The position numbers and the translations under genes were made by a program. Below the pieces are notes generated by a model, which was given only the letters and a program-made list of their open reading frames with translations, made no database searches and had not been told where the DNA came from. DNA of 64,000 nucleotides from positions 1,824,001 through 1,888,000 of the forward strand of contig CAWCYD010000003.1 in assembly GCA_963799775.1 (NCBI GenBank), read 5' to 3'. Positions within the stretch are counted from its first letter, which is position 1. Every line of letters begins with the position of its first letter. Shown in pieces: positions 37,747-64,000 of the stretch. The stretch is from an uncultured archaeon (GTDB lineage: Archaea; Thermoproteota; Nitrososphaeria; Nitrososphaerales; Gagatemarchaeaceae).

Positions 37747-39244
<1,498 letters not shown>

Positions 39245-43062: not shown

Positions 43063-43116
<54 letters not shown>

Positions 43117-43241: not shown

Positions 43242-43274
<33 letters not shown>

Positions 43275-46052: not shown

Positions 46053-46624
46053 CTCGTCTCAAATGGAAGGATGCCAGGCGGAGGCGCAATGAACCTAGTA
46101 GCTAACAGAGAGGAGTCTGGACATACCAATCCTGATAATCCCAGTTTTCCTTTAGGACATACCACTTCCCGTTGTCTCCCTGATTAGTCCACTGCTGCTG
46201 GACATTGGCGGTCTCGTTGGTCGCACCGAAGATCTCCCTTGTGCCTACAAACACGTAGCTGAAAGTGGCATTGATTGTTGCTGTTCCGATGTTCTTCAAC
46301 ACAATATTCGAGACGGTCACAACGGATGGAGAAGAGCCGAAGTCTTGGAACTCCGAACCGTAGAGCCCACGAATGTAGAACCGTTCTTCAGGGTACCTGC
46401 GTAGTCCCCGTTGAGTACGAGGTAGTTGCAGATCTCTTCCCTTCCATAAAGTTTGAGCTGGATTTGCGCGGTGTTCAAGGACGAGTGCAACGAGACAACG
46501 GACGAGTTCGTGTAGAAATCCATCATGGCGTCAATGTTCTTGTCTTCGATTGCTTGCTCCCACTGATTGAGTTGGAGCTGCACTCGCGACTTGGCTTGAG
46601 AGGAGGACGCAGCCGACGAGTAAG

Positions 46625-47810: not shown

Positions 47811-48271
47811 TAAGAGACGTAGATGGCTGACGCGAGTACAACTAGGACGATTACGAGTGCGACCCTCACTAGACACTTGAGGCCGACACCAGTTCTTGCA
47901 GGCTGCACCGGGTGTTGGTATCGCACAAATATTTACGAGTTGTGAGGACGGTCGCTTGCTCTCGCCCTTCACAATGGTTATCCGATGTCGTGGCTCGCTA
48001 GCTTCTCAGGTGGCTTGGGTTGGCATTGGCAGACGAACGCGGTTAACTTGGTGGCCGACTATTTTTTCTGGCTTGAGATGTCTGCCGCAGGACTTTTCTC
48101 TGTCATCCTTCTGCAACGCAAGAGAAATGTCGAACTCCACACACTGAACAGCTGAGAGCTACCTTGCGGGAGGCGCAATGAACCCCTATGTGCGGCGACT
48201 GCTTTTCTCCGGCTCGGCAAGACTCGACGTTCGGACAAAGGCATTTATCGAGCAACGTCATTCACAAAATC

Positions 48272-48553
48272 ATGAAGAGATGGCCGAAGACCGTGCTTGT
48301 CCTTGCCGCAGTAATCGGCCTCACATTTCTGGTTCTTCTTCTCCCTTTGCTGCCTTTCACTGAAGGCTTTGGGTGCGCGGGAGCGGTGATCATTGGGTGC
48401 GCCCCTGATCACGCATCGGCGAGCTTCTACCTCTTTGGGTCCGGATACCTGTCCACACCTCACGGCGCGAACTCCTATTACTCGTGGTGCACAGCGAATC
48501 CTGGAGGGGGCGGGTTCACGTGCCGCAACGGCGCGTTCCAGGTCCCCTGGTAG
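48272..48553 (+). CDS. Cassette: small secreted Cys-containing protein
   Basis: Signal peptide; TATA-like motif about 27 nt upstream. Confidence 0.55.
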   Translation: MKRWPKTVLVLAAVIGLTFLVLLLPLLPFTEGFGCAGAVIIGCAPDHASASFYLFGSGYLSTPHGANSYYSWCTANPGGGGFTCRNGAFQVPW

Positions 48554-48699
48554 CCAAACACGAGAAGTCCACAGCATGCGCCCGGCAGGCGCAATGAACC
48601 CTTATGCATGGCGAATGCCCTGCATTCTTGTCAAACCTAGCGGAAGCTGGAATGCTCGGACAAAACGATTAATGAGGCCAACCCATCCAAGCATTCAGT

Positions 48700-49283
48700 T
48701 TGGCACGTCAGAGGCCTGCCTTCAGTCCACCCATTGTCTTCGTGGCGGTGGTTGTAGCCGTAGTCTTGGCGATCGCTCTCGCTGACTTCGCTACCGGGCC
48801 TATGCCAGTCTCTTCTGGTTCGTCGGCTGCTCCCTCTATTGGCGGAACGAAGGAAACAACGACAGTGACAGTTACTGGTGGCCTTGGCACCGCAGCGGCC
48901 ACGGCGCTGAACGGCGCAACCTACTACATGGACAACGTGACGAGCATAATGTGGGCCGAAGACCCGGGCACCTTCCACTTCAACAACAGATCCATCACCT
49001 TCCATGGGGTAACGTTCCAGACGATCTGCACGGCACAGTTCAGCGACTGTCCGGCGTTCCTCCTCCCACTCCAGGGGTCACCTACGCCGTTGCATCGGGT
49101 GCCGGAATAACCTTGAACGTCACGTTCTCTGACCACATCAGCGAGATCATTTCAGGAGGTTTCCCATTAGTGCCTGTCCGCTTTTCCGCATACTCTCATC
49201 ATACAGACCCCCAGGCTGGAATCCTGATCGTCTATACCAGCTCCAACCCCGAATACAAATCCTACCTGCTTGTGTCAGTTTAA
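48700..49283 (+). CDS. Cassette: membrane-anchored protein (frameshift near 49060)
   Basis: Two overlapping frames join into one plausible protein. Confidence 0.55.
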
Positions 49284-49392
49284 CATCACAAACCCGCAAG
49301 CCTCCCCGCCGGAGGCGCAATGAACCCTGTGTGTGGCGACAAGCCTCTTAACCCGACAATCCTTTAATCGACGCCTTCGATAACAGAATTGC

Positions 49393-49713
49393 TTGCCCAG
49401 GCCGTTGAACCTGGTAAAATGGGCGCCGTTGTGTGCAAGCTCAGTTCAAGATCTGCCTGAGGGCGAACGCAACAAGAAGATCAAATCCATGAAATCGGTG
49501 CTGGAGGAACGCAAGGATGCGGGAGACCACGTTCCAAGAGGCCTCTGGCCGCGAGACAAGGCGTATGATGGGATCACGAACCTTTACAGGTATGAAATCG
49601 ACAGGGAGATGAGAGCGACCTACACCATCGGCAGAATAGACGGCAAGTGGGTGGTCACGGTGATCGAGGTCTTCTGGAACCACAAGAGCTACGAAAGAAG
49701 GTTTGGATACTGA
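49393..49713 (+). CDS. Cassette: RelE-like toxin candidate
   Basis: LYRYEIDREMRATYTI...HKSYERRFGY. Confidence 0.55.
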   Translation: MPRPLNLVKWAPLCASSVQDLPEGERNKKIKSMKSVLEERKDAGDHVPRGLWPRDKAYDGITNLYRYEIDREMRATYTIGRIDGKWVVTVIEVFWNHKSYERRFGY

Positions 49714-49719
49714 ACCTGG

Positions 49720-50010
49720 CTACTTGATTACTACCGACGAATCGAAGAGCGCCTTGAGCTTCGGGTTGTCGGCAGCCACCCATACAATCCTCCCATGTCT
49801 GTCGATGAAGACTTTGCCAGTCGTTACCAGGATCTCTAGCGCGTTCTCGAAGGCCGCAGTGGTCGTATCCGGGGGCAACACCTTGCGCAGTTCGGTCTTT
49901 GTCGGCGGTAGGTCAGACCCTTTTATCGTCCTCTCAATCAATATCAACAGCGAACGGTCGGAAGCCGCGGCGCGACCATCACGTTCCCGGGGCCGAGGAG
50001 TCAAGGTCAT
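49720..50010 (-). CDS. Cassette: small wHTH-like protein, possible antitoxin
   Basis: TKTELRKVLP..FENALEILVTTGKV; convergent with the previous gene. Confidence 0.5.
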   Translation of the reverse strand: MTLTPRPRERDGRAAASDRSLLILIERTIKGSDLPPTKTELRKVLPPDTTTAAFENALEILVTTGKVFIDRHGRIVWVAADNPKLKALFDSSVVIK

Positions 50011-50065
50011 AAGACGAGGCCTGAGATGTCATACGTTTTCATGTTATTAAACGTGGATACCATTG

Positions 50066-50157
50066 CGCTGGAAGCCTTTCGGGCGACCAGTTCAGCCCGT
50101 CCACTACCTATAGCTCAACGTGCGGATGAAATGCCCCGGCGGAGGCGCAACGAACCC
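50066..50157 (+). repeat. Long repeat copy: 23S 3' end plus BHB arm
   Basis: Near-identical to 43378-43470. Confidence 0.92.
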
Positions 50158-50175
50158 AAGCAGGGCGAAACTATG

Positions 50176-50571
50176 TCAGTGAGCTTCTAGGATCGTCTGC
50201 TTGGCCCGTTCGTCGAAGGTCACAAGAAATCTTTCGAAGACGGCCCTTCTTCCGAGGAGACTGAGAGGCAGCCTGTGGCTCGCGGTGAACGCAACCTCAG
50301 CTTCAAACTCCTCGTTCCCTATCTTCAATCTGATTCTGTGGAGGTAGGCGTTTATCGTGCCGCCGATACCAGAAGGTCTGATCCGCTCGCCGCGGTCGAT
50401 GGTCAGTCCCAGGACTCTCCCAATCTGCCCGTCGAAGAGGCTTACGCTCGCGCCCGAGTCGACCAGCGCCTCCGAGGCCACCCACGGACCATCAGAGAGT
50501 CGCAACTCAAGTGGGATTATTGGAAAGTTGGAACCCCTAAAGGGCACGTATCCGAACTCGTATTTCGTCAA
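50176..50571 (-). CDS. Cassette: retropepsin-like aspartyl protease
   Basis: ALVDSGAS, GIGG, LLGR. Confidence 0.85.
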   Translation of the reverse strand: MTKYEFGYVPFRGSNFPIIPLELRLSDGPWVASEALVDSGASVSLFDGQIGRVLGLTIDRGERIRPSGIGGTINAYLHRIRLKIGNEEFEAEVAFTASHRLPLSLLGRRAVFERFLVTFDERAKQTILEAH

Positions 50572-50792
50572 AGAATCAGGAGTTCTTCATCCTTCTTGGG
50601 GACGTAGAGCACCAGGGGCACTTGCTTTGGATGGATCCTCGTCGCTTTCTTGTGTGCCTCGCCGAAGCTCTTGCCATCAGCGACTATCTTCCTGTCAAAT
50701 ACGGCGATCCATCGCCCAGAGTGCTTCTCCGCCTCGGCGTGGTGCTTGACCAGCCATTCGTGCTCCTCCTTCAAGGAAGCCATGCTCGGCAA
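50568..50792 (-). CDS. Cassette: DUF5678-like small protein
   Basis: HSGRWIAV...IVADG; overlaps the protease gene. Confidence 0.7.
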   Translation of the reverse strand: MPSMASLKEEHEWLVKHHAEAEKHSGRWIAVFDRKIVADGKSFGEAHKKATRIHPKQVPLVLYVPKKDEELLIL

Positions 50793-50950
50793 CTAGATTC
50801 CACCAAGTAATATTACTTTTGAGGCCTCGGGGCAGGAGAATTTCGGCGACCCAACTCGGCCCACTGCCTTCAGCTGCATTTCATAGAAGCTAGCGAGAGC
50901 TTGAACCGTCATCCGAATGAGTTAGAAGACAGTCTCGTGTCGCTTTCTTC

Positions 50951-51637
50951 ATGATTTGCGCCCGAAGCAGAGCAGGGCTTAGCGCCACAGTCATAATTCT
51001 GGGCATCATAGCGATTCTCCTTGTCACTGCTATCGGCTTGTATGTTGCATACACGCCCGCCGAGCCTCCCGTCCCGAACATCCATACCAATTCGACAACT
51101 CCAACCCTTAGCACAACCACCAGCCTTCCTCTCACTACCACCAGCGATTCCGCCTTGTCATCAGGCAACAACTTTCCTTTGGCGGTGGGCGATTATGCTC
51201 GTTACACTGGAACTGCCTTGGAGCACCTGGACCGGAGCAAGACCAACGAGACCGTCATTGTCGAGGTCGTATCAATCAATGCCAGCGGCGTCGAGTGGAG
51301 ACAGATTACGAACACTTCAACGGTCTCCAATCAGGAGTCATACATCGTCCCTCTTGGAGCGTCACCCTTCCATTCTAACAGTTCCGGGATGACTTTCGTT
51401 CCTGTCAGCACTGAGAACATGGTCAGAGTCATCGGGTCGAGGGTCTACAATGTCACGGCAATGGTGTACGACGATGGGAATAACGGTTCTACGACCTTCT
51501 CTTACTACTATCGAACTTGGACGACCCTCATCCCGATCGAGACTAGCTCGCAGTCGGCCCTACCACTCGGCAACACGACCGATGACCTTTTCCTCACTGA
51601 GACGAACATCCCGTGGATGATCACTGTTCAACCATGA
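50951..51637 (+). CDS. Cassette: membrane-anchored protein with class III-like signal
   Basis: RAGLS + TM; stop codon abuts the repeat. Confidence 0.65.
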   Translation: MICARSRAGLSATVIILGIIAILLVTAIGLYVAYTPAEPPVPNIHTNSTTPTLSTTTSLPLTTTSDSALSSGNNFPLAVGDYARYTGTALEHLDRSKTNETVIVEVVSINASGVEWRQITNTSTVSNQESYIVPLGASPFHSNSSGMTFVPVSTENMVRVIGSRVYNVTAMVYDDGNNGSTTFSYYYRTWTTLIPIETSSQSALPLGNTTDDLFLTETNIPWMITVQP

Positions 51638-51761
51638 GCCCGGCGGAGGCGCAATGAACCGCTACCGCGCACGGTCTCAACGAGTCAGCGAGAACCGGAC
51701 CTGACCACCGAACGAGGTAAGAACAGGCTGCTCTCACGCGGTTGCCAGCTTTAGGGCTGAT

Positions 51762-52535
51762 TTGGACTTGAACCTGAGAAGAAAAGAGAGCGCCTTCATT
51801 CTCGCGCAGGTGGTCATCACCCTCGCGGTCCTTGCGCTCGTTTCGATTCCAGCAGTCTCCAGGCTGTCTACGAACGACGGGTCTGTTGTCTTCTCGTCCG
51901 GGGTCTCGCCCGACGGCCTCCAGCTCGAGATGGCGCTGAACTCCACCGCGATGCGGGTGAACGGGTCGATCGGCGGCCACGTATCGGTCGTCAACACGCT
52001 CGGCACAGACGTCACCGTCGTCGTCCCAGAGCCCAGCCAGAAGATGTCGGACTGGAGCAGATACACCAACATCTGCCCGACTTCCAACTTTGAAGGCTAC
52101 GCGGTGTTCATCGGGCGCTATTCGGCGGACAACATCTCTCTGGCAGGAGAACCCTTGACGTTGGTCCCGCCCATGATCCTAAATTGCGTCATCCCTTACT
52201 ACGTCCCCGGTCCACTCACCTTCTCCCCTCACGGGGGTCCCTCGGGTCAGACCGTGGTCTACGCCCAGAGCCCCTCGAGCACCAAAGAAGATCGACTCCT
52301 TATCACCACGCTCTTCTGCAACACGACAGAGTCTGGCCCTCAGAGCTTTAGCTGCAGCTGGGCCTCTCCAGGGCTCGTCGGCTATTGGGAGGGCGGCCCT
52401 GGCTCGCCCGCCAACTTCGGCTTCACCTCTCCCGGCTTTGCGCGGTTCTTTCCCGGGGTCTACACGATCATGGCGTGGGATGTCTGGGATCAGTACGTCT
52501 TTGCGAGGGTCGTCGTGACGAGCGCTGTACGGTGA
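51762..52535 (+). CDS. Cassette: secreted protein (family of 1648 and 52694)
   Basis: GLQLEMALNST...PGVYTIMAWDVWDQ. Confidence 0.7.
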   Translation: MDLNLRRKESAFILAQVVITLAVLALVSIPAVSRLSTNDGSVVFSSGVSPDGLQLEMALNSTAMRVNGSIGGHVSVVNTLGTDVTVVVPEPSQKMSDWSRYTNICPTSNFEGYAVFIGRYSADNISLAGEPLTLVPPMILNCVIPYYVPGPLTFSPHGGPSGQTVVYAQSPSSTKEDRLLITTLFCNTTESGPQSFSCSWASPGLVGYWEGGPGSPANFGFTSPGFARFFPGVYTIMAWDVWDQYVFARVVVTSAVR

Positions 52536-52693
52536 TTGCGAATAGTCTGGCTCCAAGACTGACCGCAGCCTCGGCGGAGGCGCAATGAACCCATATGCAT
52601 GGCACATGCCCTGCAACTTTGTTTTGACAAGGCCCAGCGGAGACTGTAGCGTTCGGGCAAACCGATTTTAAGGACTCAGGACACATTCTCTAC

Positions 52694-53353
52694 ATGGCGT
52701 CGACGGCGGTCGCCGTTGTGGCATTTCTGATAATCGCAGCGGCCGCATCAGTGGTCTTCGCTGAAGATCCGAACAACCCTGGCTATGGAGGCATGCCAAC
52801 CTCCCTGGCTTTGACGGCCTCCTCAACTAACCGCGCGACCGGCTTGTCGCTTGAATTGGCATTGAATGCAACGACCGTGAAGAGCGGTCAGGCGGTGGAC
52901 ATTATGGCGAGCGAGACCAACACGCTACCAACGATGAACAACGTAACCGCGTCGAACCAATGGCCGGTCAAAGGCCTTGCTGTATTCGAGAGTCCATGCG
53001 GGACCGTCAACCATCCCTTCGGGATGGCTCTCTATCGCGGATACTACGGGAATGTCAGTTTGGCCAAACCGCTCCAACTCTACGCACCCGAGCCCGTTTA
53101 CCATTGCCCTATGATACTCTCGAAGATCACACAGTATTCCTTCTACCCGGAGAACTCCACCGCCCAGATTTGGGGAAGCTGCGTCCCAGGACCTTGTCAG
53201 ACTTTCGCCATGTTCGCGAGCCTCCCAGTGAAAGGATACTGGAATACAGGATTCCTCTCCGATCATACGGCGCTCATTCCTGGAGTCTATACTGTCGCTG
53301 CTGGAAACGAATGGGGGCAACTCGAGCTGCTCTATTTCGTGGTCCGGGCCTGA
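52694..53353 (+). CDS. Cassette: secreted protein (family of 1648 and 51762)
   Basis: GLSLELALNATT...PGVYTVAAGNEWGQ. Confidence 0.7.
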   Translation: MASTAVAVVAFLIIAAAASVVFAEDPNNPGYGGMPTSLALTASSTNRATGLSLELALNATTVKSGQAVDIMASETNTLPTMNNVTASNQWPVKGLAVFESPCGTVNHPFGMALYRGYYGNVSLAKPLQLYAPEPVYHCPMILSKITQYSFYPENSTAQIWGSCVPGPCQTFAMFASLPVKGYWNTGFLSDHTALIPGVYTVAAGNEWGQLELLYFVVRA

Positions 53354-53420
53354 ATTTCCGGGAGGCGCAGTGAACCTTATGCATGGTAACACGCCCACAT
53401 TTTGTCAAACCTAGCGGAGC

Positions 53421-53681
53421 TCACGGGTTGTCCGCATCAGGCTTGTCCTTGGCGTGCCGTGCGATCACTATCGCCCATCCCAAGAGTATCAATCCGACCA
53501 GCACACCGATTGCTGCGCCGCCGAGGTATTGGTAAGCAGACGTTGAGACTCCAGGACAGCTGCACGATATCGTTGTGCCTGGTGGCGCGGACAACCCCGC
53601 GCAGCACTCTCCCGGTCGCGGAAAAACAAATAGAATCAGAAGGGAGACGAACTCAACGAAGCCTCCCAGGCCCGCCAGCAC
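53421..53681 (-). CDS. Cassette: small two-TM protein
   Basis: Two hydrophobic helices around a Cys loop. Confidence 0.5.
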   Translation of the reverse strand: MLAGLGGFVEFVSLLILFVFPRPGECCAGLSAPPGTTISCSCPGVSTSAYQYLGGAAIGVLVGLILLGWAIVIARHAKDKPDADNP

Positions 53682-53889
53682 GACGACCTTGGAAAGCGAT
53701 TCTTCAATTCATCTTTCCTACAACTCGGTTTGTCGGATTCCCGATCGATACGCCTTGTGGAATTATCTCGGACGGAGGCGCAATGAACTCTATGTGCGGA
53801 ATTGCCCGCATTCTCATCGAGCTAGCGGGAGCTGGAGAACAATGCTCCGGAAGATGTAAGAGCGATTTCAGCAGCTCTGAAATGGCAGC

Positions 53890-54534
53890 ATGAAACCGGA
53901 AGATGACCGGAGGTCCCAATCAAGGGTTGCTCTTGTCATCGCTTCAATTGCTCTGCTCGTTGTATCGCTTTTTGCCGCGTTCGAGTACTCCGCAGCATCT
54001 TCGCTCGGCATGTCCGACCAGACCCTCGCGAGCAGCCTATCTCAGCTGCAGTCTGAGAACAAGAACCTGGCTTCAACGCTCTCTGGCTATTCGGTGGCCG
54101 CAAATTCATCGGTAGTCCAAGCAGTCGAGGTGCACATCTCCAAGTTGAGCCAGAGAAACGTCCAGGCCGCTCTTCTGGACTACGCGTCAAACTCTACGGT
54201 AATCTGGACTGGTACCACGCAGGGTTGGGGCGGGATATACAACAGCACATACAAGGACGTGGTGCTACGCGATTTCTTCGGTCTTCCTAGCATACTCAAC
54301 TTCACGATGCAGCTGCCATACGGGGTCCAGACGGGAGCGGCCGTCCCCGGGACCGCGATAGCACTCACGACCATCCGTTTCGGAGGCCTCAGTCGGTGCG
54401 TTGATGACTTCTCGGGCCTAATCCAGGCCTCTTACTCGCTCGTCAATCAGAAGGGCGTTTGGCTCATAACGCAGGAGGACTGGAACTTTACCAGCTTCAA
54501 TGTCACTTACCCTAGTGGAGAGGGCTTTTGCTGA
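53890..54534 (+). CDS. Cassette: membrane-anchored SnoaL-like protein
   Basis: VIWTG..GWGGIY...WLITQEDWNF. Confidence 0.65.
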   Translation: MKPEDDRRSQSRVALVIASIALLVVSLFAAFEYSAASSLGMSDQTLASSLSQLQSENKNLASTLSGYSVAANSSVVQAVEVHISKLSQRNVQAALLDYASNSTVIWTGTTQGWGGIYNSTYKDVVLRDFFGLPSILNFTMQLPYGVQTGAAVPGTAIALTTIRFGGLSRCVDDFSGLIQASYSLVNQKGVWLITQEDWNFTSFNVTYPSGEGFC

Positions 54535-54633
54535 GCCGGAGGCGCAATGAACCCTATACACGGCGAATGTCCTTCAGGTCCATCCAGTCGCTTTCAGGAA
54601 GTTTCATAAACGAGGCAGACATTGCCGAGTCCC

Positions 54634-54917
54634 ATGGCGCTCGAAGAGCCACTGACCCAGGCTGAAAAGAAAAAACTTCACAGCATTCTGAGCGATCCGA
54701 AGGCCCTCGATGCGGTCATTGACAAGGCGCTGGAAGGCTGGAGTGGCCACAGAGTTTGGAAGAAGAAGACAAAGAACTCCTAGAGCTACTTACCTCGCTT
54801 GAGACCAGGCTGAAACGACGCGTGGTCAAGGCGCCCTTCAGGAGCCCAGAAACCTTATTCGAAGAACTTGAGGCCCTTGACGTGGTCATGGATCTGAAGA
54901 AGAGACTTCGTTCCTGA
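54634..54917 (+). CDS. Cassette: two overlapping small ORFs (54634-54783, 54756-54917)
   Basis: MALEEPLTQAEKKK... and LEEEDKELLELL...; both below the ORF-track cutoff. Confidence 0.45.
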
Positions 54918-54963
54918 CTACGCCCGGCGGAGGCGCAATGAACCTATGCATAACGACAATCAC

Positions 54964-55500
54964 CTAGGCTTGACTGGCTTCCATTTCCATCTGAATCTTG
55001 TTCCAAAGCATGCTCTCAGAGAGTTTGAATTCGAGACGTTCAGCCTGAAACATCAGAAGGATTTCCTCTTGCAGCCTGTTGGGCTTTGCCCTCTTAATCA
55101 CCTTCCTGCTGCTTTGCCGCAAGTAGCCGGCTCGATTCATTATCCTCGCTAGGAACAGACTCGCGAAGTGTATCTTGCCTGACTCCAGCCAGCGTACCTC
55201 AGGAATCCCGGACTGTTCAAAGGCGCCCTGGTTGTCGGTCAGGATGACGTAATTCTCAAATCCCTTCTGCTCAGAGATCTCTTTCGCCCGCCTCGCAGCA
55301 AGAATCTCCATTTGAGTGGATGCCGGGTTGCCTTTCTCGGTGACGGCGTTGATAGTGGAGCTCTCGATATATCCAAAGTCCTTGTCAGGTACCAGAACCA
55401 CGATTCTCCCTGTGAACTTATCAGTCACCTTGCTCGAAGTCAAGCCTTCCATTACCGCCGGGGACACTGAAGCGTCGCAGTAGACTTCGACGGCGCTCAT
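54964..55500 (-). CDS. Cassette: RNase H-like fold protein
   Basis: VYCDAS...MEILAA...ILTDNQ (D-E-D). Confidence 0.65.
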   Translation of the reverse strand: MSAVEVYCDASVSPAVMEGLTSSKVTDKFTGRIVVLVPDKDFGYIESSTINAVTEKGNPASTQMEILAARRAKEISEQKGFENYVILTDNQGAFEQSGIPEVRWLESGKIHFASLFLARIMNRAGYLRQSSRKVIKRAKPNRLQEEILLMFQAERLEFKLSESMLWNKIQMEMEASQA

Positions 55501-55669
55501 CGAGAGGCGTTCCCGGCTGCGTCCTAATGATGTTTGAGGCGCAATGAACCCTGTGTATGGCGCAAGCCCTTCTACTTCATTTTAGAGAAAGCCTAGCGGA
55601 GCTCGCGCACTACGAGACCTATTCTATCAGGTTCAATAGGGAGCGCACACGTTTCATCCTTGAGGCGCT

Positions 55670-56897
55670 ATGAGGAGCGCAGTCGTCGCAGCGGTTGTCA
55701 TAGTCTTGGTCGCAGCGAGTCTGGGAGTTGGCTACCAACTCGGCAACCAAGCCCAACGCACCGAGACGCTAAACTCGACATCCACTCAGACTATCATCTC
55801 TATCAGCACCTCGACTTCGACGTCCACTCTGACCAGCACCTCTACCTCCTTCGTCAGCGTAGCTAGCGGTCAGCCCATTCCGGTCACGAGCGTCGAGACC
55901 GCGAACATAACCATCGGACAATCTCCTGATCCCTATGCCGAGTCAATCGCGGTCAATCCCAACACCAACAGAGTCTACGTCGTTGACGGGTCTACTCTGA
56001 CCGTCCTAGACGCGGCGTCGCACGCAGCGATCGCGAACGTCACGCTGCCAGCGAGCGGCACTGGAGGAATCGCCGTCGACAACCCCACAGGCATCGTGTT
56101 CGTCTCGGTCGAGTTCTTCAACGACGGGGCACCCGTAAAAGGGGAGGTCGCCGAGATCAATGGCTCCACGAACGCAATCGTGCGCGAGCTTCCGCTCGAC
56201 TCCCCCCTAGGCGCGCTCGCGTACGACCCATCCACCCACGTCCTTTACGGCTCCGCAGGGGGAAACCCGGGTTCCCGCAGGCCATAATGGCAGTCTCCTG
56301 GGCGTCGACGTCCAGACGGGCTCTATGGTGTCAAACGTGTCGCTTGGTTTCAGGGCCTTTAACCTGGCAGTCAATCCCATGACAAACATGGTGTATGCCG
56401 ACGGGTGCGACCAGTTTGGTCTTGCCTGCGACGCGGTCGTGTCAATGGTCAACGGGACGAGCCGTAGCCTGGTCACAACCGTTCACCTGAACTCGGCGTA
56501 CTCCACGACCATGACCGCGAACCCGGCGACGAACATAGTTTACGCTTCTGGAGCAAGGGAGCTCGTCGCCCTCAATGGGACCAACGGGGGCACGATCTTC
56601 AAGGTGGACCCTTACACTTGCGGCCCCTTCCTCGGCATGGCCGTAGTTCCTTCGGCGAACCAGGTCATCATGGTCCCGCAGAACTACGACTACCTGCTGG
56701 TGTACGACGGAACGTCCGGAGCCCTGCTCACCATGTATTCGCTCCCGAGCTTGCCGCAATCGGTTGCCTACAACCCCAGCACCAACGAATTCTACGTGAC
56801 GACCTCGGGGCATCTCCTGGCCTTCCCCGACCTGGACTTCGTGGGCGACGCGAACCCTTCACTGATTGGTTCGAATGACACATGCCTGCCGGTCTAG
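55670..56897 (+). CDS. Cassette: YVTN/YncE-like beta-propeller (frameshift near 56260)
   Basis: Repeated AVNPxTNxVYV motifs. Confidence 0.75.
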
Positions 56898-57062
56898 TCC
56901 CCGCATCCCCGCGAGAGGACGGCGTCGGTTTGCAACATGCATGCCCCGGCGGAGGCGCAATGAACCCCTATGCATGGCGACATGCCCGCATTTTTAGAAA
57001 CTGAGCGCGAGCCAGGACTCCTCCACACGCTTAATTACGTCTAATGTCCGCAATCGCCAGCC

Positions 57063-57302
57063 ATGGCCAGAGCAGAGCAGAAATACCTCATCGATCGGGA
57101 GACGTTGGAACACCTGCTCGCGATGCTCAGAGACGGAGTCGCCAAAGGCGCCAGCGACAAGGAAATCAGAGAGCAGACTCTAGAAATCCTCGACCCCTAC
57201 TATCGGGCCAAGGTCGATCGTGCCCTCAAAGAAGCGTCAGAAGGAAAGGTAAGGCGCTTCAAGAACGCGGAAGAGATGATTCGCGACCTTCACTCGCGCT
57301 GA
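57063..57302 (+). CDS. Cassette: antitoxin
   Basis: ALKEASEGKVRRFKNAEEMIRDL, upstream of RelE. Confidence 0.7.
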   Translation: MARAEQKYLIDRETLEHLLAMLRDGVAKGASDKEIREQTLEILDPYYRAKVDRALKEASEGKVRRFKNAEEMIRDLHSR

Positions 57303-57308
57303 CGGCAC

Positions 57309-57569
57309 TTGCCCTGGTCGCCAGAGTATACTCCGACATTCAGACGAGACTACAAGAACCTAGATTCACAGAATCAGCGAAGGGTTGACGACGCAATCAG
57401 GGATATCGTCAACGCCGATGAGCCTAGGTCTCTCGGTCGCCCGAAACTTGGTAAGTGGGCGGGAGCGTTTGGTTATGATGTCGGCCGTTCCATCAGGATC
57501 CTCTACTCGGTCAATCAGCCATACCACCTCGTGGTATTCTTGCGGTGCGGCCGCCATGACATTTACTGA
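57309..57569 (+). CDS. Cassette: RelE/ParE toxin
   Basis: YTPTFRRDYKNL...IRILY...GRHDIY. Confidence 0.85.
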   Translation: MPWSPEYTPTFRRDYKNLDSQNQRRVDDAIRDIVNADEPRSLGRPKLGKWAGAFGYDVGRSIRILYSVNQPYHLVVFLRCGRHDIY

Positions 57570-57574
57570 TTATT

Positions 57575-57650
57575 GGCGACCAGTTCAGCCCGTCCACTAC
57601 CTATAGCTCGACGTGTGGATGAAATGCCCCGGCGGAGGCGCAATGAAACC
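57575..57650 (+). repeat. Long repeat copy: 23S 3' end plus BHB arm
   Basis: GGCGACCAGTTCAGCCCGTCCACTACCTATAGCTC...GGCGCAATGAA. Confidence 0.92.
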
Positions 57651-57719
57651 ACCTGAGTGGCTCGATCTCTGGCGCTTCACCCGCGGTTCCTTCGCAGACG
57701 CTCAGCCTCGCTTGGTTCT

Positions 57720-58130
57720 TCAGCCTTCTGTCTCCATCAACACCGCTTCTTCCATCTCTTCGAGAAACAGCACCCGGACGCCCCGAGCTTTGAAGAACCG
57801 GCGGAAATCACCCTCCGCGGTTTCCTTTGGATGGCTTGCATACGCCACCGCGTGCTGCACCTTGAGATCGCGAACGTCCTCCGCCTTTCTTGCTCTCATG
57901 AGGTGCTCCACATCCCTTGTCCAGTCCTCTGCGGCTCCGGCCCGCTCCCTGCATGAAACTACCATCATGACCTTGCCCTTCACACCGGCGACCTCGGTGG
58001 CAGCCTTGTGACCGGGGTGCTTGAGCGGATGCGGCGCCTCGATTTCAGTCAGGCTGTATCCTTCTACGATCGTCAGGTAATCCTTGACGAGCTCCTCAAG
58101 ATAATCGCCGAGCTCCTCCGCCACAGGCAA
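57720..58130 (-). CDS. Cassette: hypothetical protein
   Basis: 136-aa ORF filling the inter-repeat space. Confidence 0.55.
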   Translation of the reverse strand: MPVAEELGDYLEELVKDYLTIVEGYSLTEIEAPHPLKHPGHKAATEVAGVKGKVMMVVSCRERAGAAEDWTRDVEHLMRARKAEDVRDLKVQHAVAYASHPKETAEGDFRRFFKARGVRVLFLEEMEEAVLMETEG

Positions 58131-58271
58131 CTGAAATCGACCGTGCCGACTTAGCTTTACCTACTCCGCGTGAACGCGCGGATGAGAATGCCCCGGCGGA
58201 GGCGGAACGAGCCCTCATGCATGGCGAAACACCCTTAGCAATGCGAGCCGGTTGCTGTCGTCTGAGATGGA

Positions 58272-59150
58272 GTGCGTCGAGTCCTAGCAATTGGAATCAT
58301 CTTGATTCTTCTCTGCGGTGCAGCTGGTTACATCGCTTTCCTGGAGCTTCAAACTTCTACTGCATCTAGTACGACAGCCGTCAGTAGCCTCACTAGTAAT
58401 TCCACAGCCCCTTCATCCTCCGAGTCCACAACTCCACAGAATGCAACACTGATCAGGGCCGTCGACTATCTCATCGACGGCTACAACCCTGACGTGGGGC
58501 TGATACCGGAAACTCCCGGCTCCTCCACCTACTGGCTCTACAGCGACAACTTTCTCGCTGCGCAAGCTCTGCTGCAGTACGGCAAGTCGAACAACACGGT
58601 GTTCGACATAGGGCAGAACATCTCGAAGACCCTGCAGAGGGATTCCGCGGGCATAGGCGCAGAGAACCAGTACGCGATGGCCCTCGGGGAAGGACCATGT
58701 CAATTCCACAGCGCCGTCGACTACAATGTGTCCTCATCAGGGGGCATCCAAATCAGGACGACCCTTAACAACGAGGCAGGGAATCTCTCTGCAAACCAGT
58801 ACGCAGACATCGCGTTCCTAACTGCAATCTGCCTTCATACAAACCAGCCCCAGGCGTTGGCGGAGTACGATGTCGGGCAGGGAATGTTCGATGGCATCGG
58901 GCTCAGGGACTTGCCCTACAACCAGTCGGAGCTCTACCAGACCTACAAACTGGCCCTCTACATCTACGCCAGCGATATCCTAAGCCAGCCAGTAAACCAG
59001 ACCGCCCTGGCCACGCTCATCAGGATGCAGGCCCCGAACGGAGGATTTTACACTGGATATGACCCAACCTATTCACCGGCAGGGACGCTCACAAACACGG
59101 AGACGACGAGCCTTGCCATCCTCGCTCTTTACAACTACTTGCAGAAGTGA
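58272..59150 (+). CDS. Cassette: secreted, probably alpha-helical barrel protein
   Basis: TM, YWLYSDNFLA, QAPNGGF..Y, NTETTSLA; stop codon lies within the repeat. Confidence 0.7.
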   Translation: MRRVLAIGIILILLCGAAGYIAFLELQTSTASSTTAVSSLTSNSTAPSSSESTTPQNATLIRAVDYLIDGYNPDVGLIPETPGSSTYWLYSDNFLAAQALLQYGKSNNTVFDIGQNISKTLQRDSAGIGAENQYAMALGEGPCQFHSAVDYNVSSSGGIQIRTTLNNEAGNLSANQYADIAFLTAICLHTNQPQALAEYDVGQGMFDGIGLRDLPYNQSELYQTYKLALYIYASDILSQPVNQTALATLIRMQAPNGGFYTGYDPTYSPAGTLTNTETTSLAILALYNYLQK

Positions 59151-59226
59151 AATGCCCCGGCGGAGGCGCAATTGACCCTGCGCAGGAAGCATCATCTTAA
59201 ATACACATACGTGCACATAATAATCA

Positions 59227-59463
59227 ATGGCCCACAAGACGATAACAATCTCAGACGACGCGTACGAGGCGCTCGCCAAATCAAAGAGAGAGAACGAGTC
59301 TTTCACCAAGGTCATACTGCGACTGACCTCTGACAAGAAAAAGGCCGCCAGGTTCTTGGAATATGTGATGAACTCTCCACCTGACGAGGAGCTCGCTCGA
59401 AGCGTCGAGAGGGCAATGGAGAAGACCCGGAAGGCGCGCCTCAAGCCCGCGAATCTGGGCTGA
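59227..59463 (+). CDS. vapB: Cassette: VapB antitoxin
   Basis: KTITISDDAYEAL...ESFTKVILRL. Confidence 0.85.
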   Translation: MAHKTITISDDAYEALAKSKRENESFTKVILRLTSDKKKAARFLEYVMNSPPDEELARSVERAMEKTRKARLKPANLG

Positions 59464-59470
59464 GCGACCT

Positions 59471-59866
59471 ATGGTGTGCCTAGACACTTCGGTGGTCGTC
59501 GCCATACTCCGAAAAGACCGAGCGGCGACTGAGAGGCTGAGGTCAGAGGTGGAAGGCGGGGGAACGTTCTCCACCACAGTGGTCACTCTGTGCGAGCTCT
59601 ACTCCGGCGCGTTTAGGGCCAGTGACCCGCAGAAAGAGGTGAAGAAAATACAAGAGTTGCTCACGAACCTGGAGGTCCTCGGGCTGGAAGAAGGTGCTGC
59701 GAGACGGTATGGGGAGCTGGTTAACGACGGGACTCTCAAGAGAGCGCCCATCGGAGACTTTGACCTGGTAATCGCCTCGATCGCCTTGGAGCAGGGAGAA
59801 AAACTGGTTACCCGCAATCTCAAGCATTTCAGCAGGGTCCCTGGACTGGTCACGGAGCAGTGGTGA
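59471..59866 (+). CDS. vapC: Cassette: VapC PIN toxin
   Basis: CLDTS, EL..G, FDLVIASIAL, TRNLKHF. Confidence 0.92.
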   Translation: MVCLDTSVVVAILRKDRAATERLRSEVEGGGTFSTTVVTLCELYSGAFRASDPQKEVKKIQELLTNLEVLGLEEGAARRYGELVNDGTLKRAPIGDFDLVIASIALEQGEKLVTRNLKHFSRVPGLVTEQW

Positions 59867-59900
59867 TCTCCGACTTCATCTTTCTTCGCGAGGGAGCGGC

Positions 59901-59986
59901 GAAGCCTTCGGGCCACCGGTTCAGCCCGTCCACTACCTATAGCTCAACGTGCGGATGAAATGCCCCGGCGGAGGCGCAATGAACCC
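59901..59986 (+). repeat. Long repeat copy with a UUCG tetraloop variant
   Basis: GAAGCC-TTCG-GGC...CCCGTCCACTACCTATAGCTCAACG...GAACCC. Confidence 0.92.
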
Positions 59987-60018
59987 TTCATGAACGGCAA
60001 AAACCTTTCAGCAAGAAT

Positions 60019-60618
60019 CTAGGGAACTAGGGTCTCCGTCGAGTTCACGGTAAGCTGAAGCGAAGTGTCCTCCACTGCATTCGGGATTGCTATGATTAGC
60101 GACATGCCGGCACGAGACCACGTGGTCGTTGGCTGCGAGTTGATGTAGACCTCAAAGCCGGGTTGTGGGAACAAACCTTCTGTCCCCCCCGAGACCGTAA
60201 GGTTACGACCCTGTGCGGCAACTGCGGAACTGATTGTGAAATTCACTGTCCAGACGTTCGAGTATGAGATGATGTGCCCCACCCCTCCGCCGCACATCGT
60301 CCCGCAAGCCGTTGGCGTGTCTGTGTAGGAATAGAAATAGGAACAGGTCGAACCGCTGAGGGGAAGGGTTGGGTTGAAGCTGACTTCAATGGATTCATTG
60401 GTCCCGCCGCTGACGCTGACCAGAGTCTGCAGGGAGTCCTGCGAAGGCGGCGGATTCGACACGACGCAGCCGTAATCAACGACACTCTTGCTTGGGGGTG
60501 GAACTGAAGGGCCAGCGGGCGACACGAACAGAGGAAAGATCACAAGGTCGAGGGCAAGAACAGACGCTATCGCAAGGGCGAGGATTGCGGCGTAACCGAG
60601 AGTGTTTCGACTTGGCAA
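60019..60618 (-). CDS. Cassette: membrane-anchored protein
   Basis: N-terminal TM, 199 aa. Confidence 0.65.
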   Translation of the reverse strand: MPSRNTLGYAAILALAIASVLALDLVIFPLFVSPAGPSVPPPSKSVVDYGCVVSNPPPSQDSLQTLVSVSGGTNESIEVSFNPTLPLSGSTCSYFYSYTDTPTACGTMCGGGVGHIISYSNVWTVNFTISSAVAAQGRNLTVSGGTEGLFPQPGFEVYINSQPTTTWSRAGMSLIIAIPNAVEDTSLQLTVNSTETLVP

Positions 60619-60800
60619 AGGCCCAAGACGCTACGGGTAAACTGCACCGGCGCGGTAAATAGCTTTGTCCGAACGTCACCGCAATGAACCCAAATGCACG
60701 GCGAATGCCCTGCGTACTTTCATTTTAGCAGAGCCTAGCGGAGGCTGGAACGTTCGGACAAATCCTTAATCGAAACCTTACGCTTGCGGACTACTGAACG

Positions 60801-61542
60801 GTGCAATTGAGGAGCGCATTTGTGGTAGCAATCGTCCTGATCCTAGTCGCTGCCAGCTTGGGCGCGGGCTACGCTGTCGGCAATTCGACCAAGGGCATAG
60901 AGACTGAAACCTCGACGGTAGTCTCCACCGCCACGCTAACAAAGGTGTCGACATCCACTGCAACGACAACGGTCAGCAGCGTATCGACGCAATCTTTCAC
61001 ACAGACCATCCCCTCGGACTGTCTCGTCAGCAATGTGTCGGGCTACTCGTTCGGCACCATCGCCATTGGGACAACCTCTCCCGCGATAGTCTGCGTCCAG
61101 CTCTATGAATTCAACGCCACCTCGACGGCCGTCCTGGACCCGGCCAGTCTCATCACCATCTATGGCGACGAGATTTCCAACGCCACTTCGAACTTCACAA
61201 TCACAGCAAGCGCCAGTAACATCGACCTGGGAGGTGCCTGCGTACTCGAATGAAGGAATCATTGTGGAATTCCACATTACGGCCAAACCAGGAATCAGCG
61301 GCACGTACTGGTTCCAGATACAACACGCGTGGTACCTTGAGGGTGCCGGAGCGACAGAAGCGGGCCCGAACGGCGTGCTGGTGGCCGGAACGGGCCAGCC
61401 AGACTATGTGCCTTCCACCTCCACCATATTGCCCTTGGAAGTAGGCTGCACCTCGCCGTTCAACGTACCCGGAGTAGGATCCAGCATCTGCGCAAGCGTC
61501 CTGTATTACCGAATCACCGACGTGACAAACTCAACGCAGTAG
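60801..61542 (+). CDS. Cassette: membrane-anchored protein (frameshift near 61235)
   Basis: N-terminus (RSAFVVAIVLILVAASLGAGY) closely matches that of 55670. Confidence 0.6.
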
Positions 61543-61635
61543 GCTAGGCGGAGGCGCAATGAACCCAATGTGGGGCTGTCGAGCAGAACGAGACGCGTTT
61601 CTCCTTTTATATCGCCGGCCGCTGTTGTATCTGGC

Positions 61636-61921
61636 ATGGAAGTGACGCAGAAGGAGTTGGAAAAGGCGATGAAGGAAATCGACAAGAAACTAGCTCTTCC
61701 AGACGAGAAGTTCGAAAAGTACGCGAGTGACCTTCTTGAGCGCGCGGTCAAGGGACTACGAAGAAGCCGCTAAGCTGTATCAGTTCCTCTCCAGACTAGA
61801 GCACGTTCAGGTGAGAAGAGCCTTGCAGGCTTCTAGGCTCGCGCCTGACGAACTGGGGAACGAACTCGTCGTCCTCGCTGCGATTATGGAAATCAGAGAC
61901 CGCATAGGAGAGCCAACGTAG
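61636..61921 (+). CDS. Cassette: two overlapping small ORFs (61636-61773, 61727-61921)
   Basis: Same architecture as 54634-54917. Confidence 0.45.
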
Positions 61922-61992
61922 CGACCAGTTCTAGTGCGCTACCTGTAGCTCAACGTGTGAGTGAAATGCCCCGGCGGAGGCGCAATGAACCC
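61921..61992 (+). repeat. Long repeat copy (degenerate)
   Basis: GCGACCAGTTC...CTACCTGTAGCTCAACGTGTGAGTGAAATGCCCC...GAACCC. Confidence 0.88.
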
Positions 61993-62054
61993 TGTGTATG
62001 GCGAACGTCACGATCTTGAACTCCTGCAAAGAGATGGATTCCCGCAGGACTTTC

Positions 62055-63206
62055 TCAAGGAACTTGTTCCAGAAAGCTGTTGTTGTTCTCTCCAATCATG
62101 ACCCGGCCTCCATCCTGATAGGGAACGACTATGAGGTTGGTGGCTGATTCCCCTGTGTAGCCAAACGTGTAGAGCGACGGATACGACTCAAGCTGGTTCG
62201 CTGAATCCATGTAGAGCAATGCCAGAGTCGAGTTCATCTCGAGGAACCTAGTCGTTTGTCCGCAACAGTACGCTGCCCAAACCAGATCAGAGTCATACGA
62301 TTCGATATTCCCTATCTGTTGACCCCACGGCCAGAGCGTAGGTTTCACGACTATTGATGCAGACGTGACGTTTCGGATTGGGATGTGGACAATGCCGAAT
62401 GTGTCGTTGTTAGCCGCAAACGTTCCGTTGCCGAACGGGTTGTCAGACATCCTGATCTCTATCCCGGCATTGTAGACGTCGACTGAAGTGGTGAGCCGCA
62501 CATCCAGTGGGAGCGAGTAGTTTGACGTAGAGCCAAGGAACGAACCGAAGGCATAAGTTGTCTTTCCGTTCAATTCTCCATTCCGACCGTTTCCGTACGA
62601 ATCCAGAGTGACGTTCGCATTACTCCCGGTCTCGTTGAAGATGAGGCCATCGAAGTCCCTGACCTCTTGTGTAGTTGTATTCGCGAAGGGCACCACGTTT
62701 TGCGCCCAGAACAACTCGCTCCCATGGGCCGTGGTAACGACCACGTTCACGTTCATTTGGAGGCTTGCGCATTGCGTACACGCCAATACCGAGTAGGTTG
62801 GAGCTATGGAGTAGTCCCAATTTGTAGAAGCTGAGAGCGCGCTGATATCGGCCTGCCCAACGACCTCTGTTGTGTTTATGGAATACGATTGTAGCGACCC
62901 TGAATAGTTGTAGACGCCATACGAGGCTATCCCAATGGGGGATGCTTCGGTCGGGCGATTGAGAAGGTATTCAAATTGTGAGCTGTCTAGAAATTGTCCC
63001 CAATCGAAAGCCTGGGAAGACCCGGTGGCAGTCGTCGGAGACGACGTAGAACTGGTCGGAGTTACAGCAGTCCTGGTCAACATACTTGATTCGAGAGAGA
63101 CGCCGATAAGAAGAGCAATCAAGCCTGCTACGACGGTAACCATGACCGCCGACCGAGAGACAGCGTGTCTTCGCTTCAAGATCATTATTGCAGGCCCAGG
63201 GACCAA
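62055..63206 (-). CDS. Cassette: thermopsin-family protease
   Basis: PIGIASYG, SLQMNVNV, FWAQNV, TGESA. Confidence 0.78.
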   Translation of the reverse strand: MVPGPAIMILKRRHAVSRSAVMVTVVAGLIALLIGVSLESSMLTRTAVTPTSSTSSPTTATGSSQAFDWGQFLDSSQFEYLLNRPTEASPIGIASYGVYNYSGSLQSYSINTTEVVGQADISALSASTNWDYSIAPTYSVLACTQCASLQMNVNVVVTTAHGSELFWAQNVVPFANTTTQEVRDFDGLIFNETGSNANVTLDSYGNGRNGELNGKTTYAFGSFLGSTSNYSLPLDVRLTTSVDVYNAGIEIRMSDNPFGNGTFAANNDTFGIVHIPIRNVTSASIVVKPTLWPWGQQIGNIESYDSDLVWAAYCCGQTTRFLEMNSTLALLYMDSANQLESYPSLYTFGYTGESATNLIVVPYQDGGRVMIGENNNSFLEQVP

Positions 63207-63304
63207 GGCGAAGCCAGCATTTTAATCGAGAGTCTATGGATTACTGGGCCCCGGTGGAGGCGCAATGAACCCCATGCGCGGCAACTAAATCCCCAAATGC
63301 TAGG

Positions 63305-63739
63305 TTGATTCTTCGCTGGCTTGTGGAGTCTCTACGCTACCCCTCGGTATCCGATGTGGTCGAGGTGAACAGGAGGGTCACAAAACTAACAGAAGATGAA
63401 CATCACATCGACGAGTATGATAGAGAGCGATTATCCAAGTTACTCGACGAGGTTCAGAACATCGGCAACTCCATCAGAAACCCGAGGCAGAGGATCATAG
63501 CCAAGTCGTCTTACCTGCTCTACTGCATTGCCGCTCGACAATTCTTTCACGAAGGAAACAAGAGAACAGCGTACACCGTCACCATGACGTTCTTGATTCT
63601 GAACGGCTACTCCATGCCTTCTAGAGATCCCAAGCGAGAAAAGATGCTCGACCTGATAGCCATGGGCCACCCAAGCATAACATTATTAGAGTTGGAGAAG
63701 CTAATGAGAAAACTGGTAACCAAGAGGGAGAACCCATGA
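63305..63739 (+). CDS. Cassette: Fic/Doc-family protein
   Basis: QFFHEGNKRTA (the motif His is replaced by Gln), FLILNGY. Confidence 0.8.
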   Translation: MILRWLVESLRYPSVSDVVEVNRRVTKLTEDEHHIDEYDRERLSKLLDEVQNIGNSIRNPRQRIIAKSSYLLYCIAARQFFHEGNKRTAYTVTMTFLILNGYSMPSRDPKREKMLDLIAMGHPSITLLELEKLMRKLVTKRENP

Positions 63740-63858
63740 GCAAGACAAGCCAAGAGATCAAGGTACCCAGGACTGACACTGAATTTGTCCGCCTAGCCAA
63801 GCAAGTAATCGCAAAAGAGAGGGACTATCTCATCTACATCGGCTCTGAGAAGCGCTAG
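63736..63858 (+). CDS. Small ORF coupled to the Doc gene, possible antitoxin
   Basis: ATGA overlap, 40 aa. Confidence 0.45.
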   Translation: MSKTSQEIKVPRTDTEFVRLAKQVIAKERDYLIYIGSEKR

Positions 63859-64000
63859 CGACCAACGAGTGCCTGTCAGCGACATACAACCCTGGGGATT
63901 TACTCTGGCGTTGATTCGGGAAAAATGCGACTGGAAGGGGTGCAGTAACAAGGCATATCGCGAAGTAGACTATTTCACCAACAAGCCTCTCAGACAGAAG

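Follow-up and report, generated by a model that had tools for sequence, protein, structure and literature searches.

Gene cassettes behind the 23S rRNA gene of an uncultured archaeon: a probable integron-like platform

Behind the 23S ribosomal RNA (rRNA) gene of an uncultured archaeon of the Gagatemarchaeaceae, small groups of genes alternate with partial copies of the end of the 23S gene itself. What are these copies, and why do some reach much further back into the gene than others? We analysed a stretch of 64,000 nucleotides (nt), hereafter the window, from GenBank assembly GCA_963799775.1 (contig CAWCYD010000003.1, positions 1,824,001 to 1,888,000). An earlier note on this DNA had proposed that long copies specifically follow toxin–antitoxin (TA) genes and that secreted-protein genes are followed by short ones, pointing either to two classes of cassettes or to two crossover points. 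Here, we describe the copies as the borders of gene cassettes, which on balance probably form an integron-like platform attached to the 23S rRNA gene of this Group I.1c thaumarchaeon from soil and peat.

The rRNA operon of the window comprises the 16S rRNA (37747-39244) and the 23S rRNA gene (39478-43442, +; Rfam LSU_rRNA_archaea, 2416 bits), which contains a group I intron (41517-41772, +; Rfam Intron_gpI, 77.5 bits) and is a single copy in the genome. The array begins at the 3' end of the 23S gene. Its core word of 15 nt, GGAGGCGCAATGAAC, has 25 matches at up to three mismatches in the whole window, compared with 2.2 expected and a maximum of 6 in 100 shuffled controls. Twenty-three of them lie on the + strand between 43454 and 63256, and an additional degenerate copy is found at 60675. 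The first core lies 12 nt past the 23S end, and the repeat recurs on the + strand up to the window end with a spacing of 391-3231 bp. The native attachment region is followed by 22 further cassette junctions (44263-63272, +) that are copies of it, and core starts are found at 44263, 44982, 46080, 48169, 48585, 49311, 50141, 51645, 52576, 53361, 53774, 54538, 54929, 55535, 56951, 57634, 58198, 59162, 59970, 60675 (the degenerate copy), 61550, 61976 and 63256, all on the + strand. The array extends ~24 kb past the window, to C3:1911960, for a total of 44.5 kb and ~50 cassettes, and smaller core clusters occur at six other places in the genome.

The processing stem of the 23S rRNA supplies the repeat core: GGAGGCGCAATGAACCC is its 3' strand. 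The native region (43444-43520, +; core 43454-43470) consists of the 3' stem strand and then the trailer, and is the template of all downstream repeats. The order in the strand is helix CCCCGGCGGA, GCGC plus the AAT bulge, helix GAACCC and helix TATGCACGGC; the trailer continues with a hairpin, a T-run and GCTAGCGAGAGCT. The 5' strand of the stem (GCCGTGCATAGGGTTCGCGCAAGCATCCGCCGGGG; 39435-39470, +) is complementary to 43444-43482, and the duplex of both 23S flanks reaches -57.3 kcal/mol in the window genome. Processing stems of -55 to -57.5 kcal/mol are present in four of six genomes, and their distal helix shows G-C to A-T compensation; in G007 and G021, the 3.0-4.8 kb searched upstream contained no good partner. 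The core occupies the middle of the 3' strand, from the end of helix GGCGGA through an unpaired G, the GCGC helix and the AAT bulge to helix GAACCC. At GCGC/AAT the opposite strand has AAGCA facing G, which, read by eye, is a relaxed form of the bulge-helix-bulge compared with the canonical 3-4-3.

Bulge-helix-bulge processing stems flank archaeal 16S and 23S rRNA. The stem described here shares with them inverted repeats around the rRNA, a long covarying helix between 43444-43482 and 39435-39470, and an internal GCGC helix between unpaired bases. It differs in that at least 50 extra 3' halves without a 5' partner follow the 23S gene. The 5' strand occurs only once, in the window as in the genome, and the array copies are therefore orphan 3' halves. 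As far as the literature searched goes, we know of no other case of extra processing-stem 3' halves behind a gene. In a genome of a sister family, the 23S trailer contains AGAGGCGCAATGA...TATGCATGG, yet the core word has only one match genome-wide, which argues that the stem came first and the array second.

To define what lies between the repeats, we used eight array stretches from seven genomes, holding 250 cassettes and 258 junctions. Genes were called with a codon model trained on the window genome (560 genes; 13 genes were dropped at locus borders), which recovered all Pfam-supported genes in 56900-64000. There are 52 homologous cassette pairs between or within genomes, all of them at non-collinear positions; cassette 29 of the window genome and cassette 4 of G011 are 96% identical, as are cassette 18 of G007 and cassette 15 of G014. 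When six pairs were aligned together with their flanks, similarity set in at the core, continued through the genes and the left arm, and ended at the next core. A cassette thus runs from one 17-nt core to the next, in the order core, right arm, gene or genes, left arm, core, and the long 23S-end copies are left arms that belong to the cassette upstream of them. The cargo is diverse, with 298 of 520 cassette proteins being singletons. Tandem duplication of one gene family was rejected as the origin of the array, given these singletons and a single paralogous pair among the cassette proteins with a hydrophobic N-terminus in the window (a class defined by our own hydropathy rule rather than by a signal-peptide predictor).

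Left arms were measured with a hidden Markov model (HMM) of the 23S tail. The earlier note had listed six long 23S-end copies in the window, at 50066, 50845, 57575, 59901, 61921 and 63858, and four of these stand. Positions 50081-50157 are 96% identical to native 43394-43470, and the 5' half of the last 23S hairpin is present from 50066; this arm (50066-50140, +; 77 nt by HMM), a 23S tail with a TTTC-looped last hairpin, follows the cassette at 49393-50047, whose supposed RelE-like pair has no family match in Pfam or NCBIfam. The segment 57575-57647 is 97% identical to native 43395-43467, and its arm (57575-57633, +; 75 nt) follows a TA cassette (+) with a 79-amino-acid (aa) candidate antitoxin (57063-57302) and a ParE-like toxin (57309-57569; PF15781, E 6.6e-7, and PF05016), with positive coding scores. 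The VapB (59227-59460)–VapC PIN (59471-59863) cassette (59227-59866, +; PF02697, E 4e-17; PF01850, E 6e-18) is followed by a 69-nt arm (59895-59969, +), its hairpin carrying compensatory changes relative to the resident 23S; 59910-59998 is 93% identical to the 23S end. At 61921/61939-61993, identity is 96% over 55 nt with an indel, and the arm (61921-61975, +; 55 nt) follows a small open reading frame (ORF) pair (61570-61921) that has no family match in Pfam or NCBIfam. A medium arm of ~41 nt (58157-58197, +), absent from the earlier list, follows a cassette with a 136-aa ORF on the minus strand (57720-58130).

The other two listed copies fell away. At 50845-50902 (+; family D6, 86%), between the DUF5678/Asp-protease pair (50176-50792, -) and a 228-aa gene, lies a relic junction that keeps only a right arm (86% identical to 43490-43518) and a degenerate core, with no 23S sequence. 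The trace at 63858 shares ~8 nt with the 23S end, which is no real similarity. It was said to follow a Doc pair; the Fic/Doc-type toxin gene there (63305-63739, +; PF02661, TIGR01550) has a cassette whose next arm is short (0-8 nt, at ~64223/64275), and it is therefore an exception to the long-arm rule. The remaining cargo, namely ParE-like, VapB, PIN, Fic/Doc and DUF5678 with Asp protease, was confirmed by Pfam and NCBIfam. Two small adjacent genes with toxin and antitoxin families, as in type II TA systems, are present in the window as VapB with PIN and as the ParE-like pair, the toxins being predicted ones. The short copies behind secreted-type genes were borne out as well, the 13 hydrophobic-N-terminus cassettes of the window being followed by arms of 0-18 nt.

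In several long arms, the last 23S hairpin has a (C)TTCG-type loop where the resident 23S has GCAA, together with compensatory stem changes, and the native 23S ends of relatives carry TTCG-type loops. The long arms thus have the appearance of 23S tails from other hosts, or from earlier ones. Their left limits are not sharp, lying at about -59, -70 and -80.

The association between arm length and cargo persists in the larger sample of 250 cassettes from seven genomes. A left arm copies 5 to 85 nt of a 23S 3' tail; the lengths peak at 5-15 and at 25-45 nt, and the distribution tails off to 85 nt. TA cassettes, called from Pfam hits to our own gene calls (genes of up to 170 aa in five of the genomes), have a short arm (<20 nt) in 14 cases, a medium arm (20-49 nt) in 32 and a long arm (at least 50 nt) in 16. 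The corresponding counts are 59, 13 and 3 for hydrophobic-N-terminus cassettes, and 69, 38 and 6 for all others. With a cut at 25 nt, set after inspecting the arm-length histogram, 47 of 62 TA cassettes reach this length compared with 53 of 188 non-TA cassettes (odds ratio 8.0, p 6e-11, a value that the kinship of the genomes makes too optimistic); some of the latter 53 hold two small unannotated genes. The result is similar among cassettes matched for size at 400-1000 nt (42/48 vs 24/83), with an earlier score-based cut (36/62 vs 25/188) and when homology clusters are counted once (34/39 vs 49/166). Eleven of the twelve TA families obey the rule, while Fic/Doc does so in one of three cases; families found elsewhere in the arrays are MazE/PIN, HicAB, DUF4258/DUF2283, DUF433/DUF5615, TumE and Fic. 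The window DUF5678/protease pair was left out of the TA count, owing to a coordinate mismatch. The upstream junction of the same cassettes, used as a control, has zero TA excess in its arm, and gene orientation is irrelevant to the effect (31/39 on the + strand, 16/21 on the - strand). The association is strong, not absolute. At the DNA level, the left arm belongs to the cassette: it does not depend on strand and is inherited together with the cassette.

The hydrophobic-N-terminus cassettes have the opposite arrangement. A long right arm is present at the upstream junction of 52% of them, compared with 18% of TA and 19% of other cassettes, and the median distance from gene end to next core is 33 nt, against 67 nt for TA cassettes. 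A full right arm consists of the core, a hairpin derived partly from the distal stem strand, a T-run, CTAGCGGAAGCTAG, TTCGGACAAA and a TTTAT/TTAAT box, as at 44982-45095 (+), where the TTTAT box is followed by an ATG at 45096 that opens a gene for a 318-aa hydrophobic-N-terminus protein. Ten of 14 TTCGGACAAA sites have a TATA-like box just downstream, and among the 13 sites that have a downstream gene, nine have the start codon 32-44 nt downstream of TTCGGACAAA. Alifold gave no consensus structure for 35 full right arms. Judged by its motifs, the long right arm may combine a hairpin and T-run resembling a terminator with a downstream promoter of the B recognition element (BRE)/TATA type for a leaderless message. 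The two arm patterns are mirror images, and so the two cassette classes suspected earlier are real: TA cassettes with a long left and a short right arm, and hydrophobic-N-terminus cassettes with a short left arm and a right arm that is long and copied from the trailer, each keeping a different half of the native 23S-end region.

The second suggestion, that of two crossover points, fared differently. Homologous cassettes in different contexts, those with TA genes included, break within the core; arm length tracks the upstream and not the downstream cassette, and the left limits are unsharp, so that two crossover points are unsupported. Among core variants, position 1 tracks the upstream cassette in three pairs and position 17 the downstream cassette in one, and one cassette family hints at exchange between core positions 9 and 11. 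Finer mapping by shared variants (192 junction pairs with a common upstream cassette, 19 with a common downstream one) gave no result; in an ungapped register the flanks are noisy, the core hardly varies and many loci had been chosen by exact core match. Nor do the sites resemble the folded attC sites of integrons. In a test of ten junctions by single-strand folding, nine had z-scores of -1.1 to +0.9, and attC-like folding was therefore rejected for these sites. The remaining one, an atypical junction at 60662-60763 (+) with z -4.6 over 60655-60770, has a strong hairpin because its left flank, TTGTCCGAACGT, is an inverted copy of the right-arm end (TTGTCCGAACGT ... ACGTTCGGACAA); it is the only integron-attC-like site seen. 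Public DNA contigs covering 43300-63299 (three runs of one study, with no RNA run listed) have all their joints at repeats, with sides of 20-35 nt. These cannot be told from repeat-induced contig ends, and we draw from them no conclusion about excision or expression.

Of 22 genomes of the genus, 19 contain the core word, which also occurs in two further genera of the family; among 16 genomes from elsewhere, two have it, each time as a single match with one mismatch. The 17-nt core is much better conserved across the genus than its flanks. In all seven genomes checked, an array adjoins the 23S 3' end, the first core lying 8-26 nt after it, and arrays span ~126 kb in G014, 100 kb in G021, 59 kb in G007 (a single-contig assembly) and 44.5 kb in the window genome. 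In the G014 array (L143-L149), TA cassettes 16, 17, 20 and 21 are duplicated relative to 33, 47 and 59, with 91-99% identity at distant positions; the same array has a composite 2.2-kb interval with relatives of two separate cassettes, which may reflect a lost junction. On contig C2 of the window genome, a 23S-tail copy (173560-173622, -) with 95% identity over 63 nt is followed by a diverged core, with a normal junction 1.3 kb away; long-arm arrays are therefore not restricted to the 23S locus.

A second platform, found at five loci in four genomes, offers a candidate enzyme. An integrase gene and dnaJ (int-dnaJ) form a conserved block that ends ~10 nt before a core. Between this core and a last one lie one to five differing cassettes, and a right block, also conserved, starts directly after the last core. 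The sequence ahead of the first core resembles the 23S trailer (...gatgaaattccccggc), and the last core is followed by a conserved 140-bp segment that ends in a hairpin with a T-run. The window genome has two such loci (C3:121054-126241, L011, and C3:1384721-1387700, L017), and cassette content differs between genomes. Their tyrosine recombinases (C3:121054-122097 and C3:1384721-1385776) are paralogues, 69% identical, with a C-terminal zinc ribbon. Against the integron integrase model TIGR02249 the recombinase scores 20.9 bits (cut-off 265), which makes it something other than IntI, and its best NCBIfam match is archaeal XerA (67.7 bits, cut-off 220). It has 169 relatives, almost all from Nitrososphaeria where a source is named. 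A Nitrososphaeria-specific, Xer-like tyrosine recombinase is the most likely candidate for the enzyme of the arrays.

In the integron-like reading, cassettes would be excised and inserted by recombination inside the core, most likely by the Xer-like recombinase encoded at the int-dnaJ platform. The core may be invariant because its first copy must still serve rRNA processing. Long arms would be pieces of a former host's 23S end, acquired when a cassette adjoining the 23S gene left imprecisely. TA cassettes, being selfish and often transferred, would keep such arms because 60-100 nt of homology to conserved rRNA ease entry into the 23S flank of relatives; this is the account we prefer for the TA link, and the weakest step of the reading. 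Several observations count against the integron-like reading. No recombinase gene was found beside the 23S arrays. The integrase family was found in 10 of the 22 genomes of the genus, compared with 19 that have arrays (completeness 54-96%), and G007 has an integrase homologue without a repeat nearby. Fifteen of the 62 TA cassettes are short-armed, and the kinship of the genomes and the reliance on our own gene calls, both mentioned above, bear on the TA statistics. The crossover is placed only within the 17-nt core, from few informative variants, and no cassette was observed being excised or inserted, the public data being short contigs that break at repeats. In the cassette pair G014_48/G021_20, the core-proximal left arm matches each host's own trailer, a pattern that homologous exchange fits as well as site-specific exchange.

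A bolder version of this reading, which we put forward tentatively, takes the rRNA processing stem itself as the attachment site of a previously undescribed gene-capture system in Gagatemarchaeaceae. Cassettes that bear promoters, and TA cassettes, would be inserted into the half bulge-helix-bulge downstream of the 23S gene, a site kept from drifting by its continuing role in rRNA maturation, either by a tyrosine recombinase specific to the lineage or by the recombination apparatus of the host, and in its boldest form the exchange point would be the endonuclease cut site in the AAT bulge, linking RNA processing with the borders of DNA cassettes. It is also conceivable, if doubtful, that no dedicated recombinase is involved and that ordinary homologous recombination between direct repeats of 30-170 nt enlarges, reduces and reshuffles the arrays and brings in DNA from relatives by crossover in the 23S tail, core or trailer, arm length being the homology offered. 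The G014_48/G021_20 pair, the variable left arm limits and the arrays in genomes where the integrase was not found all sit well with this, as does the ~100 nt of homology to the native site that both classes offer, on opposite sides. It accounts poorly, however, for breakpoints that cluster at the short core even with short arms, where only ~25 nt are shared, for the same core bounding the variable region beside a conserved integrase gene at five loci, and for a 17-nt core that, throughout the genus, is far more conserved than the sequence on either side.

The array could also be a pile-up of independent integrative elements at the 23S 3' end, comparable to genomic islands at tRNA genes, with the long copies as displaced 23S ends, or attR scars, of a crossover in the last hairpin. 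These copies are indeed duplicates of a stable RNA gene's 3' end, several begin near -59/-60, and the last hairpin is an inverted repeat like the core site of a tyrosine recombinase. We nevertheless think this improbable, since the arm class follows the upstream cassette and is inherited with it in other contexts, the left limits range from about -25 to -85, and the same core bounds cassettes at a locus without a 23S gene. Moreover, Pfam scans of the called array genes (up to 170 aa in five genomes) found no integrase, and the sole transposase in a window cassette is that of one insertion sequence (IS), of the IS4-type DDE family (46657-47721, -; PF01609, E 1.5e-7), within one cassette interval. 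A role in RNA seems similarly remote. Here the repeats would be spare 3' stem halves. By pairing with the only 5' half, either within transcripts that read through from the rRNA promoter or in trans, they would let the tRNA-splicing endonuclease cleave cassette transcripts. The best conserved part of the junctions is indeed the 3' strand of the stem including the GCGC helix and AAT bulge, and the exchange hinted at by one family, at core positions 9-11, falls inside that bulge. The genome has one 5' half, though, the full right arms with their own T-run and promoter-like box argue for separate transcription, the TA link is independent of strand, and an RNA role by itself leaves cassette shuffling unexplained. 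A repeat-driven chimera of metagenome assembly or binning is very improbable. All of the genomes are metagenome-assembled and short-read contigs break at repeats, but the same layout is seen in seven genomes, including a single-contig assembly of 2.25 Mb and contigs of 1.6 Mb, and homologous cassettes have clean borders.

TA cassettes stabilise superintegrons, and the arrays share with integrons their abundance of such cassettes (62 of 250 here). As far as the consulted parts of the archaeal integron study go (Ghaly et al. 2022, PMC9668308), the arrays also resemble Vibrio superintegrons and archaeal integrons in being long and one-directional, with small, mostly single-gene orphan cassettes and a repeated site, in differing strongly among related genomes with reshuffled cassettes, and in having a tyrosine recombinase beside a platform. 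Those parts of the study contain no mention of rRNA or Nitrososphaeria. In contrast to integrons, the recombinase is not of the IntI type and none adjoins the 23S array; the sites are sequence-conserved direct repeats rather than folded imperfect palindromes; the main platform is the 23S 3' end, with the rRNA processing stem as core; and many cassettes carry their own promoter-like arm. Set against the usual marks of an integron (sensu Mazel, with the IntegronFinder criteria as quoted in PMC9668308), there is no IntI-type integrase and, at nine of the ten junctions, no attC folding. The spacing fits a cluster of at least two sites less than 4 kb apart. Integron cassettes would be promoterless and read from one common promoter; here, cassette genes lie on both strands, and full right arms carry a BRE/TATA-like box.

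Integrative elements at tRNA and tmRNA genes, including the integrated mobile genetic elements (iMGEs) of thaumarchaea (Krupovic et al. 2019, PMC6563490, in the sections covered), likewise target the 3' end of a stable RNA, leave partial direct-repeat copies and stack in tandem. The targets listed in those sections are tRNA genes, intergenic sites and the ends of protein genes, and the word 'rRNA' does not occur in them. The units described here differ in measuring 0.4-3 kb without an integrase of their own, in using the 23S gene and its processing stem as target, and in an RNA tail that belongs to the upstream unit and depends in length on cargo class. An own integrase between attL and attR copies, as in tRNA-type elements, was thus not seen among the scanned genes, and the arm is linked to the upstream cassette. 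We found no published description of this array system in the literature searched (main articles): the portions consulted of a Gagatemarchaeaceae genomics paper (PMC10640624) contain no occurrence of integron, cassette, integrase or toxin, and an Asgard mobile-element paper (PMC8813620) is, in the portions consulted, unrelated to it.

If the integron-like reading is right, it would represent a second, independent integron-like solution for storing and swapping small genes, with another recombinase family and another type of site, in a widespread family of uncultured soil archaea. The tie to rRNA processing would explain the identity of the site across the genus and would offer a universal landing pad in relatives. 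With arrays of up to ~126 kb, on the order of 4% of a 3.1-Mb genome, filled mostly with orphan hydrophobic-N-terminus genes and TA pairs, they constitute a large unexplored share of the adaptive gene pool of these archaea. How integron cassettes are born is still an open question, and the way in which arm structure depends on cargo offers a concrete approach to it.

Some further features of the window lie upstream of the operon. At 18960-19534 (+), 24 kb away from it, two degenerate repeat copies, one of them with a 23S-tail arm of ~30 nt, look like a small or old cassette cluster; their neighbours are a PIN gene (15691-16095), methyltransferases and a thermopsin (20487-21359, -). A 628-aa protein (5545-7428, +) has a weak Cas1 match (Pfam E 4.7e-7), and no other Cas1 hit occurs in the genome; a TnpB/IS605 OrfB gene (2769-4241, -) lies nearby. 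The 628-aa protein may be a casposase-like solo Cas1, although a Pfam scan of ORFs of at least 90 aa revealed neither polymerase B nor CRISPR nearby. This gene was considered as the array integrase and dropped, as it lies 36 kb upstream, has one copy in the genome and is unlinked to the repeats. A 101-nt tRNA at 2692-2792 (-) was detected by Rfam and missed by ARAGORN, presumably because of introns. A class I aminoacyl-tRNA synthetase (11412-13833, -) is split into three ORF pieces (11412-12545, 12055-12756 and 13069-13833), which could reflect frameshifts, an assembly error or a broken gene. Finally, the gene for the beta subunit of pyruvate:ferredoxin oxidoreductase (33454-35526, +) contains an intein with a LAGLIDADG domain (PF14528 and PF14890 inside PF02775).

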